Assembly (NCBI GenBank): GCA_046539285.1 | Contig: JBKHHH010000005.1 | Span: 1 to 30,992 of the forward strand | Length of the DNA stretch: 30,992 nt | Reading direction: 5' to 3' | From: Candidatus Aenigmatarchaeota archaeon | Lineage (GTDB): Archaea > Aenigmatarchaeota > Aenigmatarchaeia > PWEA01 | In this document: positions 14,238 through 20,816 of the stretch, in pieces | Numbering within the stretch: the stretch's first letter is position 1 | How the letters are laid out: every line of letters starts with the position of its first letter | Notes under the pieces: generated by a model | Database searches by the model: none | What the model was told of the DNA's origin: nothing | Seen by the model: the letters and a program-made list of their open reading frames with translations, nothing else | Made by a program: the position numbers and the translations under genes

Positions 14238-14783
14238 ATGGATAAGATGGAGATACTGACCGCGCTTTTGGTAGGGATCTGGATCTTTATTCCCGCCTAC
14301 GCCGCCAACCTTGCCGCCCCTCTACCTAAGGGCGAGAAGAGAATGGACTTCGGCAAGAAGTTAGGCAAGAAAGACCTGCTCGGCGCGGGCAAGACCTGGG
14401 AAGGATTTCTCTTCGCCGTTCTGCTCGGCACCCTGGCCGGTGTGATACAGGTCAGCGGCTATGAGTTCCTGAACGGCTATGCGCTTCAGGCCGGTTTCTC
14501 CCTGCCGCAGCTCAGCTATACTGCAGTATTTTTCATAGCCCTGGGTTCGATGTGCGGTGACGTGGTCGCCTCCTTTTTCAAACGGCGGGTCGGTTTTGAA
14601 AGAGGAAAGAGCGTGATCCTCCTCGACCAGCTTGACTTCATACTCGGCGGCCTGGTTGCTGCCTACTTTTTCCTGACGCTGCAGCCCTTGCCTCTGTTTT
14701 TGGTATTGGTGATTACACCCGTCCTCCACTACGGCTTCAACCTACTGGGCTATGAGCTCGGCTACAAGGAGGTACCCTGGTAA
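14238..14783 (+). CDS. carS: CDP-archaeol synthase
   Basis: 181 aa, 5 TM helices. IWIFIPAYAANLAAPL, LGAGKTWEGF and GDVVASFFKRRVGFERG ... LLDQLDF match the CarS (DUF46) family. Confidence 0.65.
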   Translation: MDKMEILTALLVGIWIFIPAYAANLAAPLPKGEKRMDFGKKLGKKDLLGAGKTWEGFLFAVLLGTLAGVIQVSGYEFLNGYALQAGFSLPQLSYTAVFFIALGSMCGDVVASFFKRRVGFERGKSVILLDQLDFILGGLVAAYFFLTLQPLPLFLVLVITPVLHYGFNLLGYELGYKEVPW

Positions 14784-15430
14784 TGAAGATAGATCTGCAT
14801 GTCCACAGCTCTTTCTCTGGCGACTCCTCGACTTCACCTCAGGATATGATAATTGAAGCCAAGAAGAAGGGACTGGACGGCCTGGCCTTTACGGACCACA
14901 ACATGATCGGGGCCTACGACCGGGCCAGGGAGTTTGCGGAGGCGAGAGACTTTCTGCTCATACCCGGTGTAGAAATAAGCACTGATCACGGCCACGTACT
15001 TCTGATCGGGGTCAACGACCTACCAGCCTCAAAGAAGTTCGAAGACGTTTTGAAGTTTGCTAAGGACAGTAATGCCGCCACTATAGCCGCCCATCCCTTT
15101 ACCCGGACCAGGCCCGGGATGGAGAAGGATTTCGTCCGCAGGACGGACGCAGTAGAGATAATCAACACCAGAACTCTGGCCAGATGCAACCGGAAGGCAG
15201 AGGAATACGTCCGAGAGAGGTCGTTGGTCGGGACGGCCGGATCCGACGCCCACCGGAAGGAGGAGCTGGGTCAGGTCTGGAACGAGATCGAAGCCAAGGA
15301 CTGGAGGGAGGTCGTGAAGAGGATAAAACAGGGTCAGGTGACCGTCGGAGGCGAGAACCCCAGCTTCTCGCAAGTTCTCGGTTCCCGTTCCCGCAGCTGG
15401 ATCCGGGAACTGAAGGAGGTTTTCAGATGA
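14783..15430 (+). CDS. PHP-domain metal-dependent phosphoesterase
   Basis: KIDLHVHSSFSGDS (HxH), FTDHN, PGVEIST, AAHPF and GSDAH give the PHP metal-ligand series. The start overlaps the carS stop (TAATG). Confidence 0.7.
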   Translation: MKIDLHVHSSFSGDSSTSPQDMIIEAKKKGLDGLAFTDHNMIGAYDRAREFAEARDFLLIPGVEISTDHGHVLLIGVNDLPASKKFEDVLKFAKDSNAATIAAHPFTRTRPGMEKDFVRRTDAVEIINTRTLARCNRKAEEYVRERSLVGTAGSDAHRKEELGQVWNEIEAKDWREVVKRIKQGQVTVGGENPSFSQVLGSRSRSWIRELKEVFR

Positions 15431-16233
15431 TCCAGGACTTCATCTACAGACACTTCATCGCCCTTTCGGGCAAGTACTACACGCTACCGTCCACCCTCAT
15501 CTATGCCCTGCTCTTCGCGATTACTGTTTTCCTGGTCTACAAGTACGTGCTCAAAAAGATGCCGTTTGAAGTCGATAAAAAGTTCCTCTACTCCCTGGCT
15601 CCTTTCATCGTTCTGGGTGGAATGACACGGGTCTTGAGAGACGCCGGTTTCTATGAAGGATTTTTCTTCGTCACACCCGGTGTCTACATAACCATCTTCT
15701 TTCTCGGCCTCGGTTCGCTGATAGCCTCACTCGGTCTCGAAAAATACCTGGAAAGGGACTGGAACCCCGGCTACCACGTCTGGATGTTCGCCTTCGGCTC
15801 GCTTTTCTCTCTGCTCAGCCTGGTTCAGATAATAAGGATCGGTCTGCCCAACCTGAGGGCTATGGGCATGGTGCTGGCTCTGGTCGCGGGCTGGAGCCTG
15901 GCCTTCTATCCGGTGACAAAATTCTTCCCTCGGTACCTGTCTCGCCTGAACTACTTCATCCTGATTTCACATCTCTTCGACGGGAGCTCGACCTTTGTAT
16001 CGCTCCAGTACTTCAACTACTTCGAGGAGCACGTCCTGCCCCGCTTCCTGATCGAATACACCGGGCCGTGGGTCATGTTCCCTCTCAAGATCGCCGTCAT
16101 CTGGTCCGTGCTCTACTCCGTGGACAGGTTGGTCGAAGAAGAAGACCTGAGAACCTGGCTGAAGATAGTGATTCTCGCACTGGGACTCGGTCTCGCCGTC
16201 CGGAATGTCTTCCGGGCCACGATGCTAGTCTAG
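15427..16233 (+). CDS. polytopic membrane protein (possibly DUF63-type), hypothetical
   Basis: 268 aa from ATG 15427, which overlaps the PHP stop (ATGA), with about 7 TM helices. The 81 codons upstream in the ORF track (15184-15426) are R/G-rich and overlap the PHP gene out of frame, so they are not counted. Confidence 0.55.
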   Translation: MIQDFIYRHFIALSGKYYTLPSTLIYALLFAITVFLVYKYVLKKMPFEVDKKFLYSLAPFIVLGGMTRVLRDAGFYEGFFFVTPGVYITIFFLGLGSLIASLGLEKYLERDWNPGYHVWMFAFGSLFSLLSLVQIIRIGLPNLRAMGMVLALVAGWSLAFYPVTKFFPRYLSRLNYFILISHLFDGSSTFVSLQYFNYFEEHVLPRFLIEYTGPWVMFPLKIAVIWSVLYSVDRLVEEEDLRTWLKIVILALGLGLAVRNVFRATMLV

Positions 16234-16806
16234 TTTTCTCACGCCCTTTACTGAATAGTACAGTCTTTGGAAGAAGGTGAAAATAGAAAGCCCGAAAATA
16301 ATCCAAATCCCGTAGTAGAGACTCTGACTGAAGAAAACGGTTCCTAAACTGAAAAACAGTAGTAGTATAATTCTATCGCTCCTTCCCAATAGACCTCCAT
16401 AGAGCCTTTCCTGGGTTATGGCCTGGTACTGCGTTCCTAGATAGGAAACAAGCAGGATGGAAATCACGGTTAGACTTCCCAGCCACAGAGGAACGGCCGG
16501 GTTCAGGGCGACTCCGAAGTAAACGGCGAAGTCGGCCAGTCTATCCAGCGTGTGGTCTAGAAAGTCGCCGAACTCTGTCGTCCGGTCGTACTCCTTGGCT
16601 ATCTGTCCGTCCAGGATGTCGAGAAATCCATTGAAAAAATAGAGCAGGCCGGCCAGAAGAATGTAGTCCCGGTAGAAGAAAAAACCCGAAGCCCCGGCCA
16701 CGAAGAAGGCCAGCAGGGATACGTAGTTCGGATCGATGTCGACCAGAAACGGCTTGAGTAACTTCTTCCTCAGATCCGGCTTCTTCTTTTCCAGGTCGTG
16801 GAGCAT
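16225..16806 (-). CDS. CDP-alcohol phosphatidyltransferase (archaetidyl-inositol-phosphate, -serine or -glycerophosphate synthase class)
   Basis: Exact signature D-x2-DG-x2-AR/K-x8-G-x3-D-x3-D in LDILDGQIAKEYDRTTEFGDFLDHTLDRLAD. 193 aa, 6 TM helices. The 3' end overlaps the convergent gene by 9 nt. Confidence 0.75.
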   Translation of the reverse strand: MLHDLEKKKPDLRKKLLKPFLVDIDPNYVSLLAFFVAGASGFFFYRDYILLAGLLYFFNGFLDILDGQIAKEYDRTTEFGDFLDHTLDRLADFAVYFGVALNPAVPLWLGSLTVISILLVSYLGTQYQAITQERLYGGLLGRSDRIILLLFFSLGTVFFSQSLYYGIWIIFGLSIFTFFQRLYYSVKGVRKLD

Positions 16807-16890: not shown

Positions 16891-17292
16891 ATGAAGCAGA
16901 TAGATATCGAGGATCCTGCCGTGGAGAAGGTCAGACGTAAAGTAGAGGATGACCGAGGAGCCTCGGCTCTACTTCTCTTCGGGAGCCGGGCCCGGGGAAC
17001 GGAATCGGAAGGCAGCGACATAGATCTCTGCGTGGTTCTCAATCCGGACCTAAAGAAAGACGAAGTCTTCGATAAGACTTTGGAGTACCTATCTCTCGAA
17101 ACGGAGAAAATCGATATCTCTATCTTCCAGAACCTTCCTGTTGTCGTCAAGAAGAAGATCTTTGAGGAAGGGGACATAGTTTTTTCCAAGGACATCGACC
17201 TGGTCTACGATCTGGCCTTCCAGACCATCAAGGAGTATGACGACTTCCGCAAGTATTACGAGGACTACCTCGAGGGTGTTAAAAATGCCTGA
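16891..17292 (+). CDS. MNT-type nucleotidyltransferase antitoxin
   Basis: LLLFGSRARGTESEGSDIDLCVV is the GSxxxG...SDxD minimal nucleotidyltransferase motif. ATTAAAATATC box about 21-31 nt upstream of the ATG. Confidence 0.75.
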   Translation: MKQIDIEDPAVEKVRRKVEDDRGASALLLFGSRARGTESEGSDIDLCVVLNPDLKKDEVFDKTLEYLSLETEKIDISIFQNLPVVVKKKIFEEGDIVFSKDIDLVYDLAFQTIKEYDDFRKYYEDYLEGVKNA

Positions 17293-17695
17293 AAAGAGAG
17301 TACTTGAGAAGATCGATAAACTTGAAGGCTATTTAGACGAGATAGAAGGAGCCATGCCCCTTACCTTTGAGGAATATCGAAAGGGGTATAGAAAAAGAGC
17401 TCTGGAAAGACTCCTTCAGGTGTCGATTGAAACTATTATAGATGTCTGCAACCTCATTCTAAAGGAAGAGAAGTTCGGTGTTCCCAGCGATGAAGAAGAT
17501 GTATTCTCAAAGCTATCTCAAGAGGAGGTTCTGAACGAGTCTCTGGCCGATGCATTGAGGAAGATGAGAGGTTTCAGAAACATCCTAGTTCATAGATACG
17601 GCGAGGTCGATGACAGAAAGGTTTTTAAGTTTTTAGAAAACGAGTTGGATGATTTCTCACTCTTTATATCAAAAATAAAATCCTATCTGAACTAG
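17285..17695 (+). CDS. HepT (DUF86, HEPN-domain) RNase toxin
   Basis: FRNILVHRYGEVD contains the Rx4HxY HEPN motif. ATG 17285 overlaps the MNT gene by 8 nt (the ORF-track start at 17237 lies inside the MNT gene). Confidence 0.75.
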   Translation: MPEKRVLEKIDKLEGYLDEIEGAMPLTFEEYRKGYRKRALERLLQVSIETIIDVCNLILKEEKFGVPSDEEDVFSKLSQEEVLNESLADALRKMRGFRNILVHRYGEVDDRKVFKFLENELDDFSLFISKIKSYLN

Positions 17696-17755
17696 GGGCA
17701 TTTTGTTTGTCCGGTTTGGATAAGATTATAAACTTCGCTCCTATATACTTTTTCC

Positions 17756-18100
17756 ATGATGAAACAGGTTATCGTCGTCAGAAAGGACCTCGGTCTTTCG
17801 GCTGGAAAGCTGGCTGCTCAGGCCTGCCATGCCTCCCTCAAAGCCTGGAAAAAGGTGGAAAAGGATAAGAGAAACGATTGGGAGAGTAGTGGTGGGAAGA
17901 AAGTAATTCTCGCGGCGAAGGACGAAGAAGAGCTGATCGAGATCAAGCGTAATGCGGACCGGGCTCGGTTGCCCAACGCCCTGATCCGAGACGCCGGACT
18001 GACCGAGATAGAGCCGGGAACGAAGACGGCCCTGGCCATCGGACCGGAAAGGGAAGAAAAACTGAACAAGGTAACCGGACACCTCCCGCTCTTGAAGTAA
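17756..18100 (+). CDS. pth2: peptidyl-tRNA hydrolase, archaeal/eukaryotic Pth2 type
   Basis: VIVVRKDLGLSAGKLAAQACHAS ... GGKKVIL ... IRDAGLTEIEPGTKTALAIGP ... VTGHLPLL matches Pth2 throughout. GATTATAAAC box 24-33 nt upstream. Confidence 0.85.
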   Translation: MMKQVIVVRKDLGLSAGKLAAQACHASLKAWKKVEKDKRNDWESSGGKKVILAAKDEEELIEIKRNADRARLPNALIRDAGLTEIEPGTKTALAIGPEREEKLNKVTGHLPLLK

Positions 18101-18110
18101 CCACGACTTC

Positions 18111-18120
18111 TATTTTTTGG
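18111..18120 (+). terminator. oligo-T tract downstream of pth2
   Basis: The sequence tattttttgg begins 11 nt after the pth2 stop. Archaeal termination typically uses T runs. Confidence 0.3.
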
Positions 18121-18140
18121 ATCTGACGTGCAAAATTTTA

Positions 18141-18155
18141 AGTATTGTAAATACT
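18141..18155. promoter_or_regulatory. perfect 6-3-6 palindrome AGTATT-gta-AATACT in the RelE-module promoter (candidate operator)
   Basis: Read directly from the sequence. It lies between an AAATTTTAAG TATA-like box (18132-18141) and the antitoxin start. Confidence 0.35.
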
Positions 18156-18167
18156 ATAACTATTTAC

Positions 18168-18359
18168 GTGACACAGAAAACCAAACGGGTTCCAGTTTCC
18201 AAGGAAATTTGGCAGGATTTGGGTAGAATGAAAGAGGCTGGTGAAACCTACGATGAACTTTTGAAGAAGATGATCAGAGATTATCAGAGGCATAAACTTG
18301 CTGAAAAGGCCAGAGAGGCCAGAAAAGGAAAGGGCAAATGGATCAAGCTAGATGATTAG
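18168..18359 (+). CDS. putative antitoxin of the RelE-like module
   Basis: A small basic/helical protein (…TQKTKRVPVSKEIWQDLGRMKEAGETYDELLKKMIRDYQ…) ending 3 nt before the toxin ATG. The start is uncertain: in-frame GTG at 18168, or ATG at 18117, which would run through the promoter-like A/T region. Confidence 0.45.
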   Translation: MTQKTKRVPVSKEIWQDLGRMKEAGETYDELLKKMIRDYQRHKLAEKAREARKGKGKWIKLDD

Positions 18360-18362
18360 AAG

Positions 18363-18653
18363 ATGCCGGGTTATGAAGTCTATTTATCTGAAGATGCAGA
18401 TGATTTTTTAAGTTCTGTGGATGCTAAAAGTCAGAGGATTTGCAAAAATAATCTCAAAAAGTTAAAGTCAGATCCTTATCCTGGTCGAGGTAGTGGAGAT
18501 AAAGAGAAAATAATTGTTGAGGGAGAAGAGGTCTATAGGTTGCATATAGGAAGAAGTTATACAGCTTTTTACGTAATAGTTGAAAAGGATAATGTTGTCC
18601 GAGTTTTGGAAATCATGACTATAGATGAGGCACACAAAAAATATGGTTATTGA
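18363..18653 (+). CDS. RelE/ParE-superfamily toxin
   Basis: 96 aa. …KKLKSDPYPG…YRLHIGRSYTAFYVIVEKDNVVRVLEIMTIDEAHKKY follows the RelE/StbE pattern (YRxRIGdYRaiY…v.v..i.hR…Y). Confidence 0.6.
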   Translation: MPGYEVYLSEDADDFLSSVDAKSQRICKNNLKKLKSDPYPGRGSGDKEKIIVEGEEVYRLHIGRSYTAFYVIVEKDNVVRVLEIMTIDEAHKKYGY

Positions 18654-18694
18654 TTCGTCAAATGAGTTATTTTTGAGGTTTTCATGTGATTTCT

Positions 18695-19858
18695 ATGAAC
18701 AGGGGAGAACTGTGTGGGATGAGAGCCTATACTACCGAAGAGATGGACCTCTCCGGAACTGTAAAGTCCAGGCCGGACGACTTCCAGGTCGAAGAGATCC
18801 CGACCGACTTCTCCCTGGGAAACAAGTTCGGCATCTATCGTCTCGAGAAGACGAACTTGACCACCTGGCAGGCCGTCAACCAAATCAGCAGCAAGCTCAA
18901 TATTTCTTCAAGAAGGATCGGTTACGCCGGCCTCAAAGACCGGAGAGCAATCACAAAACAACATATCTCGATCCGGGGCTTCCAGAAGCAAGACGTCGTG
19001 ATAGACGACGATAAAATAGAACTGTCCTTTGTCTGTACTTCTTCAAAACCGATTAAATCAGGCGACCTGAAGGGGAACAAGTTCATCGTAACTATACGGG
19101 ATATAGATAAGTCGGAAAGAAAATGTAGGAAACTTCTTGAGAGAAAAAGGAAACAGATAAAGAAGGAAGGAATACCTAACTTCTACGGAACGCAGCGTTT
19201 CGGCGGAAAAAGAGCTGTGACCCACTTGTTGGGAAAGGAACTCCTGAAGAGAAACTACAAAGAAGCCATCATGGCCTATCTAACCGAGACCTCGGAAAGG
19301 GAGAACGATAGAACCCAGAAGGCAAGAGATAGACTCAAAGACGAAGAAGATTTTGAAGAAGCAACGGACTACTTTCCCCGTAACCTGGACTACGAAAGAA
19401 AGCTCATTAAGCGAATAGTGGATAGCTCGCCCCAATGGAATGAGGACTGGCTAAAGGTTCTCCAGGCCCTGCCCAAGAACCTCCGCCGTTTGTTCGTCCA
19501 CGCCTATCAGTCCTACATCTTCAACCTCTCCCTCTCCGACCTGATCCGCGACACCAACATAAACAACTTCCCGGCCAAGGTGGTCGGCTACACGACCAAG
19601 CTGAAGGAAGACAAATTCGATCGGATGATCAAGAAAAATCTGAAGAAGGATGGAATCGAGCCCAAGGATTTCAAGTTCAAGTCGATGCCCGAGCTGTCCT
19701 CGGAGGGAGCGGTAAGGGCAGCTCTGATCAAGCCAGAGATAAAAATAGAAGATGTAAGTGAAGATAAAGCTAATCCAGGTAAAGCAGAAGCAACAGTAAG
19801 CTTTAGTCTCAAACCGGGCCGCTACGCGACCGTCGTCCTCCGCGAACTTCTAGTCTAA
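18695..19858 (+). CDS. truD: tRNA pseudouridine synthase TruD/Pus7 family
   Basis: PDDFQVEEI near the N-terminus, the catalytic-Asp motif YAGLKDRRAITKQ, and NFYGTQRFG. The start is uncertain: ATG at 18695 or 18719. The ORF-track start at 18686 is a GTG. Confidence 0.8.
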   Translation: MNRGELCGMRAYTTEEMDLSGTVKSRPDDFQVEEIPTDFSLGNKFGIYRLEKTNLTTWQAVNQISSKLNISSRRIGYAGLKDRRAITKQHISIRGFQKQDVVIDDDKIELSFVCTSSKPIKSGDLKGNKFIVTIRDIDKSERKCRKLLERKRKQIKKEGIPNFYGTQRFGGKRAVTHLLGKELLKRNYKEAIMAYLTETSERENDRTQKARDRLKDEEDFEEATDYFPRNLDYERKLIKRIVDSSPQWNEDWLKVLQALPKNLRRLFVHAYQSYIFNLSLSDLIRDTNINNFPAKVVGYTTKLKEDKFDRMIKKNLKKDGIEPKDFKFKSMPELSSEGAVRAALIKPEIKIEDVSEDKANPGKAEATVSFSLKPGRYATVVLRELLV

Positions 19859-20170
19859 CCGGCTGACTATGGTTTCTCCTTCGCCGGTCTCGACGACCGA
19901 GACCTTGGTCGTGTTGTTGTTCTTTACGCTGTTGCAGTTGCAATAACACTTGCCTTCGACATCAGTCTTGTTCTTCAGTTTGTCCGGGACGAAGTCCGTT
20001 GGGTAGCATTCACATTCTATACCTTCCTTCTGGTTTAGTTCATCTTCGAGTTCGTTGCATTCGCCGTCCAGAAGTTCGTCGGCGACGCCACCTATCTTGC
20101 TGATGCAACCGCTGCTAAATACGATAAGAGAAACCAACAGTACGGCCAGAACCACTCCTTTCTGTTTCAT
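19850..20170 (-). CDS. small secreted Cys-rich lipoprotein-like protein
   Basis: Signal peptide MKQKGVVLAVLLVSLIVFSSGC (lipobox-like SSGC), then an acidic domain with seven more Cys residues (GEC, ECECY, KCYCNC). ATG at 20170 (the ORF-track start at 20179 is a GTG). Confidence 0.5.
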   Translation of the reverse strand: MKQKGVVLAVLLVSLIVFSSGCISKIGGVADELLDGECNELEDELNQKEGIECECYPTDFVPDKLKNKTDVEGKCYCNCNSVKNNNTTKVSVVETGEGETIVSRLD

Positions 20171-20201
20171 ACTATTCACTTTAACGTCTTTTCTTTTAAA
20201 G

Positions 20202-20816
20202 TTAAAGTGTTTCCCTGAGCGTCTCTCTATTGAACTTGGTGTTCGAACACCCGTTCTTGAGAAGCGGAACGCCCTGGTAGCTGATATCCTTGCCCTCGAG
20301 CTTCTTGATGGCCAGCATGATCTCCTCGGAGCAGGCGATCCCGACCACGCCTCCGTAGTTGTTCTTCCTCATTATCTTCGGGATGCAGGAACTACCCGGG
20401 ACGATATACACATCATAGTTGTTCTCCTCACCCAGTTCGCTCGCCGCTCTGGCCGAACAGTTTTCAGAACATTTTTTACAGATGTAGGAAGACGTCTCCT
20501 GGTCGAACTCCGCCTCGCATTTGTTGTCCATGTGTTTCCGCACGCAGTGCGGAACGAACAGTGCCCTCCTATCCGTCTCCTCGAACCTGTCCTTCTCGGC
20601 CAGATTTTTGACGTGGATCTCGGCCATGTCCTCAAGCAACTGTATCGATTCCTCCATCGGCAGGCCGGTTATCTCCTTGATCCTTGTCTTCTTGACCAGC
20701 ATCTTGGCCGCCTCCCCCGCCCTATGGTGGAGGTCTTTGCTCTCGGTAAACCGGGCCACGTCCTTGAAGAAGGACTTGGAGATCTTGGTCAGGTCGAAGT
20801 CGAAGGAGTATGACAT
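20202..20816 (-). CDS. DUF116-like cysteine-rich protein
   Basis: FVPHCVRKHMDNKCEAEF...YICKKCSENC ... VYIVPGSSCIP ... GVVGIACSEE matches my recollection of the DUF116 cysteine pattern. Confidence 0.5.
   Translation of the reverse strand: MSYSFDFDLTKISKSFFKDVARFTESKDLHHRAGEAAKMLVKKTRIKEITGLPMEESIQLLEDMAEIHVKNLAEKDRFEETDRRALFVPHCVRKHMDNKCEAEFDQETSSYICKKCSENCSARAASELGEENNYDVYIVPGSSCIPKIMRKNNYGGVVGIACSEEIMLAIKKLEGKDISYQGVPLLKNGCSNTKFNRETLRETL

Follow-up and report, generated by a model that had tools for sequence, protein, structure and literature searches.

Which enzyme removes the terminal phosphate from the head group of an archaeal phospholipid, and could it be the PHP-family phosphoesterase whose gene lies between carS, the gene for CDP-archaeol synthase, and a membrane protein gene in a small DPANN genome? 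An earlier note on this DNA had proposed so, and had held that the phosphatases acting on archaetidylinositol phosphate (AIP) and archaetidylglycerophosphate (AGP), the products of CDP-alcohol phosphatidyltransferases (CAPTs), are not assigned in archaea. This holds for the inositol lipid, whose AIP phosphatase is still called unidentified (PMC9385802), but not quite for the glycerol lipid, as a control search found PgpA-family candidates for that step in some methanogens. Our literature search yielded no report of a PHP protein being assigned to lipid head-group dephosphorylation; one paper mentions a PHP in a UbiA-linked neighbourhood (PMC12419801).

Gene content and layout of the locus

The window, that is, the whole analysed stretch of 30,992 nucleotides, comes from an Aenigmatarchaeota (DPANN) genome of 557 kb in 41 contigs that is 90.5% complete. 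All four genes and all three overlaps claimed in the first reading were confirmed from the open-reading-frame coordinates and the sequence (Table 1): carS and PHP share TAATG (14781-14785), PHP and aliA share ATGA (15427-15430), and aliA and the CAPT gene overlap convergently by 9 nt (16225-16233). Together with AGGAGGT sites placed 9 nt upstream of the PHP start and 6 nt upstream of the aliA start, the overlaps are consistent with carS-PHP-aliA being one translationally coupled unit, while the CAPT gene, on the opposite strand, would be transcribed separately. A longer 349-aa reading frame that opens at 15184 in the aliA frame was rejected as the start because homologues measure ~265 aa. Beyond the cluster (16891-20816) lie a nucleotidyltransferase pair, pth2, truD and a small lipoprotein gene; pth2 and truD are kept beside aliA across the phylum.

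Table 1. Features of the carS-PHP-aliA/CAPT locus, in window coordinates.
Feature	Position	Strand	Length	Basis
carS, CDP-archaeol synthase	14238..14783	+	181 aa	PF01864, NF003114
AGGAGGT ribosome-binding-like site upstream of PHP, within carS	14767..14773	+		sequence
PHP metallophosphoesterase, small stand-alone; candidate lipid head-group phosphatase	14783..15430	+	215 aa	PF02811, PF13263
AGGAGGT site upstream of aliA, within the PHP gene	15414..15420	+		sequence
aliA, DUF63/AliA_AliB archaeal lipoprotein lipidation protein	15427..16233	+	268 aa	PF01889
CDP-alcohol phosphatidyltransferase (CAPT), most likely AGP synthase	16225..16806	-	193 aa	PF01066, neighbour-labelled tree
Small predicted lipoprotein, lipobox-like cysteine	19850..20179	-		simple lipobox scan

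CarS matched PF01864 with 136 bits and NF003114 with 166.6 bits, above the equivalog cut-off of 148; the function of this family, the activation of DGGGP with CTP to give CDP-archaeol, is established. No CarS loci were found in the viral contigs searched. The rest of the ether-lipid route is represented in the genome by EgsA, GGGP synthase and a DGGGP-synthase-like UbiA, and the CAPT of the window was the sole one found. A DUF368 polyprenyl-phosphate translocase-like gene occurs in two clusters and at G000:C12:6464-7168.

The membrane protein, which the earlier note had regarded as a possible partner or flippase with seven transmembrane segments, is by its profile match a DUF63/AliA protein, of the lipoprotein lipidation family (PF01889, now named AliA_AliB in Pfam; 202 bits against a cut-off of 25). 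We hence rejected the flippase role for this gene; the flippase-like gene of related clusters is a separate neighbour of the VTT/DedA type. The count of seven segments is approximate, since the AlphaFold2 model of the protein has eight helices of at least 22 residues and hydropathy gave five strong segments. In Haloferax volcanii, AliA is HVO_2859, a DUF63 protein of arCOG02177 (PMC12462473, PMC13631571), and it is needed, as reported for H. volcanii alone, for thioether-linked archaeol on lipobox proteins (PMC12462473). AliA is recognized by two conserved arginines, which are histidines in AliB, the latter being limited to halobacteria (PMC12462473), and R68 and R259 of the window protein were invariant in 30 aligned sequences, HVO_2859 lying outside that alignment. 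The AliA family has been reported in DPANN archaea including Aenigmarchaeota. A fold search, in which we looked for a match to Lgt, returned generic helical matches only. By a simple lipobox scan, the genome encodes two lipobox-like proteins, one of which, the small lipoprotein of Table 1, lies near the cluster in relatives too (cluster c10, 12 loci) and is a plausible AliA substrate.

Linkage of PHP to lipid genes across archaea

The case for a lipid role of PHP rests on gene linkage. We surveyed 161 Aenigmatarchaeota genomes, 104 of which have CarS, and counted as adjacent any PHP gene less than 150 bp from carS. Adjacency was found in at least 25 of the 104, from nine families among the matches listed, with 22 pairs co-directional, two convergent and one divergent, and at least two further genomes have the pair within 3.5 kb. 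Given one to three PHP genes per genome of ~1 Mb, we estimate that chance would place one beside carS in well below 1% of genomes, compared to 25 of 104 observed, a count in which kin are not independent; we regard the linkage as far above chance. PHP was also present in 89 of the 104 carS-positive genomes and in 15 of the 57 carS-negative ones, a co-loss that may also reflect a general reduction of the genomes. The closest PHP homologue (47%) lies in the gene order ino1-carS-PHP-aliA, and related carS clusters contain CAPTs, ino1, egsA, a PadR regulator, a VTT/DedA gene and aliA, as well as the non-lipid genes pth2 and truD. The VTT/DedA gene and the PadR regulator recur beside carS together with ino1 (loci L136, L138, L139 and L405-L421).

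The linkage extends beyond this phylum. At 12 of 25 loci in a second DPANN phylum, that of a Nanohalarchaeota genome, PHP lies less than 1.5 kb from carS, often converging on carS-CAPT, and in Methanobacteria it precedes aliA co-directionally at 27 of 29 loci; in M. marburgensis, the PHP gene MTBMA_RS00305 overlaps aliA by 11 nt (supplement, 10.1101/2024.08.27.609747). For M. thermautotrophicus (NC_000916.1:1335470-1336412), the supplement lists no gene between MTH_RS07055 and the aliA gene MTH_RS07065, the position that PHP takes in M. marburgensis, possibly due to an annotation gap or a broken gene. The earlier note had held that its proposal would fail if PHP were not linked to lipid genes elsewhere. 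As such a link, to carS, CAPT or aliA, exists in three lineages of phylum or class rank, PHP survives as a candidate lipid head-group phosphatase, by guilt by association.

The tight PHP-aliA link in Methanobacteria would also fit a PHP that serves lipid metabolism by acting on a soluble phosphomonoester, be it inositol 1-phosphate, a CMP/CDP by-product or the glycerol phosphate that AliA would release. PHP has no membrane segment, AliA is often flanked by an inositol-monophosphatase (IMPase)-family gene (PMC12462473), and, as no IMPase was found in the 90.5%-complete source genome, PHP could replace it. However, in DPANN the association of PHP with carS and CAPT is tighter than that with aliA, and the hydrolysis of glycerol 1-phosphate or inositol phosphate would be expected to drain the CAPT of its substrate, and we find a soluble substrate rather unlikely.

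Not every PHP has lipid neighbours. A sister genus keeps carS-aliA-CAPT without PHP, and its PHP homologue instead precedes an LPG-synthase-like gene. In the source genome, where the window PHP is the single copy found (at 90.5% completeness), a GT2 gene starts at G000:C40:2960-3185 in the glyS-divergent position that holds a PHP in the sister genus; as a contig ends there, a second PHP could be unassembled. Across ~160 loci of other lineages, lipid neighbours are a minority and the gene most often found upstream of PHP codes for an aminoacyl-tRNA synthetase (68 loci; metG in those with an annotation), while the three top-scoring PHP representatives have contexts that are non-lipid or unreadable.

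Other relatives of PHP are encoded immediately behind decaprenyl-phosphate phosphoribosyltransferase-like genes or occur in fusion with GT4 domains, the latter accounting for most long PHP forms. Such arrangements fit a logic of transfer followed by dephosphorylation, for which the mycobacterial step from DPPR to DPR offers a parallel. On archaeal-looking contigs (L316:3117-4636, L341, L240 and L149), a decaprenyl-phosphate phosphoribosyltransferase-like gene, above the cut-off in one case, is followed by PHP. Related PHPs that flank UbiA/DPPR-synthase-like, AglH-like and LPG-synthase-like genes could suggest that the window PHP acts on another isoprenoid lipid phosphate, converting archaetidic acid to archaeol or cleaving dolichyl (pyro)phosphate or polyprenyl-phosphoribose phosphate. 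Yet these PHPs belong mostly to a separate branch, cleavage of DGGGP would oppose the adjacent CarS, and polyprenyl pyrophosphates are usually recycled by PAP2 enzymes, all of which makes such a substrate very unlikely.

The PHP protein and its possible substrates

The protein itself is a PHP enzyme of small size. Its profile matches were to PHP families alone (PF02811, PF13263), with none to PgpA, PAP2 (PgpB) or HAD (PgpC), and it carries H6, H8, D14, H39, E64, H71, H104, D155 and H157 in invariant alignment columns. The AlphaFold2 model (pLDDT 95.5) matched PHP barrels in a fold search, such that both the metal-binding motifs and the barrel of the superfamily are present. These it has in common with TrpH/YciV (RNase AM, 7ug9, 9etk), the Chromobacterium enzyme 2yb1, TM0559 (2anu) and histidinol phosphatase, whereas it is ~70-90 residues shorter than the RNase AM types, misses their insert, and adds a basic C-terminal amphipathic helix (residues 195-214). 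We do not take this tail to demonstrate a lipid substrate, since it occurs family-wide, equally in metG-linked homologues, and is missing from two complete carS-linked PHPs.

These likenesses also allow for PHP being a housekeeping nucleotide or RNA phosphoesterase, akin to pAp phosphatase or RNase AM, whose gene is carried along in a conserved block, the lipids being completed by PAP2 or HAD enzymes. Its orthologous group, arCOG00302, is labelled TrpH/YciV, RNase AM and 2yb1 are among its closest matches in sequence and fold, metG is its main neighbour elsewhere, and an 887-aa protein (P0205) fuses MetRS domains with a PHP of the window type; pth2 and truD belong to this block as well. PAP2 was found in 33 of 41 related genomes, and the one PAP2 and three HAD hits of the source genome could do the step. 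On the other hand, PAP2 is never adjacent to carS in those genomes, and the window PHP scores below the equivalog cut-offs, far below those of RNase RNM (45 against 375 bits) and pAp phosphatase (55 against 400) and also below that of HisJ (32 against 90), with the ~100-residue insert of 3e0f absent. A nucleotide or RNA role would moreover leave the recurrent linkage to carS, CAPT and aliA, in varied geometries and lineages, unexplained. While several observations speak for it, we consider such a role unlikely.

The phylogeny of PHP was less settled. A placement of the window PHP inside the main carS-linked clade was neither supported nor rejected (AU p = 0.22), and in two larger trees the starred positions of the protein disagreed, for which reason we claim no origin story for PHP. 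The carS-adjacent PHPs are spread over several separate branches of a tree whose backbone is poorly settled, making independent recruitment of PHPs beside carS plausible. No PHP-CAPT fusion was found among the top 150 representatives; the searches covered sizes of up to 377 aa and of 416-2000 aa, between which a ~400-aa fusion would fall. Overall, we find it somewhat more probable than the contrary that PHP acts on a lipid head-group phosphate of some kind.

The head group and a proposed route to the lipoprotein anchor

Which head group this would be depends on the CAPT. It matched PF01066 with 53.7 bits (cut-off 22) and carries the motif D63-x2-D66G-x2-AK-x8-G80-x3-D84-x3-D88 that the earlier note had read, with a Lys where Arg is usual. 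The note had named AIP or AGP as the substrate, and of the two AGP fits the genome better. In a CAPT tree with neighbour labels, the window CAPT fell in a starred clade of 11, apart from the clade of CAPTs that follow ino1, and in four genomes an orthologue of it comes right after egsA. Ino1 was not found in the source genome, in an assembly that is 90.5% complete, and occurs in one of eight genomes of the same family and in none of eight of family f4, where carS-PHP is tight. The egsA-linked clade and the missing Ino1 point to AGP as the likelier product of the window CAPT.

Conversely, the best NCBIfam match of the CAPT was to AIP synthase, NF040950, at 132.8 bits and short of the cut-off of 180, a weak test since Ino1-linked CAPT relatives also fall below it and HMM scores do not split the CAPT types; the score against the bacterial-type TIGR00560 was 30 bits (cut-off 109). 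The CAPT could thus be an AIP synthase and PHP the AIP phosphatase, with inositol phosphate supplied by an unassembled ino1 or by the host, as ino1 and an Ino1-linked CAPT stand next to PHP in many related clusters. Since the NF040950 score is blind to the CAPT clade and both the clade and the Ino1 counts favour glycerol, we judge the inositol version to be distinctly unlikely. At G023:C7:119372-121108 and G032:C14:16183-17919, some 1.4 kb, possibly an intein, separate the parts of the Ino1 match inside a single open frame of ~845 aa. Family f4 loci (L133:8485-10228, L125:8092-9925 and L134:1426-3271) contain, inside the archaeal lipid cluster, a DXP reductoisomerase gene co-transcribed with a bacterial-type pgsA, above the TIGR00243 and TIGR00560 cut-offs, respectively. 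To our knowledge, an enzyme of the MEP pathway is unexpected in archaea, and it might supply an unusual head group.

With AGP as the preferred product, we suggest that this DPANN archaeon of small genome uses the locus for the later part of the path that leads from archaetidic acid to the lipoprotein anchor. CarS would activate DGGGP with CTP, and the convergent CAPT, judged by its clade and context, would exchange CMP for glycerol phosphate to yield AGP. In the key step, PHP, as a metal-dependent phosphomonoesterase probably held at the membrane face by its amphipathic helix, would strip the terminal phosphate to give archaetidylglycerol. AliA would finally attach archaeol to lipobox cysteines, if the family role known from Haloferax applies, with archaetidylglycerol as its lipid donor by analogy with Lgt and phosphatidylglycerol. 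We regard this full sequence, up to archaetidylglycerol as the AliA donor, as quite possible though short of probable. More tentatively, small stand-alone PHPs of the arCOG00302 type, usually labelled RNase AM-like, may constitute a widespread fourth fold of head-group phosphatase that supplies AGP or AIP dephosphorylation in DPANN, Methanobacteria and possibly CPR bacteria and feeds the AliA anchor.

All four gene families were already known, which limits the surprise; new are the assignment and linkage of AliA, the glycerol reading of the transferase, and a PHP homologue in a cultured methanogen (MTBMA_RS00305 of M. marburgensis). PgpA was found neither in the source genome, as far as its 90.5% completeness allows, nor in any of 41 related genomes, and for the glycerol step of these DPANN relatives the linkage offers a candidate, a soluble enzyme of 215 residues that is easily expressed and assayed. 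The cluster also hints at the identity of the AliA lipid donor and suggests that a 0.56-Mb DPANN genome retains a core route from ether lipid to lipoprotein.

Compared with known systems, CarS is unremarkable as a CDP-archaeol synthase above the equivalog cut-off, and only its context is informative. The window AliA shares with Haloferax AliA the Pfam family, the two invariant arginines and a multi-helix membrane architecture, while it has 268 aa where HVO_2859 has ~379 aa by gene length, and its gene neighbours carS, PHP and CAPT, whereas the neighbours highlighted for AliA are IMPase, GldA and SpoIIM (PMC12462473). The proposed succession of a CAPT and a phosphatase is shared with archaeal AIP synthase and AIP phosphatase and with PgsA and Pgp of E. 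coli. In the latter, the CAPT PgsA transfers a phosphorylated head group and PgpA, PgpB or PgpC trims the phosphate. The difference lies in the fold of the candidate phosphatase, as PHP is unrelated to PgpA, to PAP2 (PgpB) and to HAD (PgpC).
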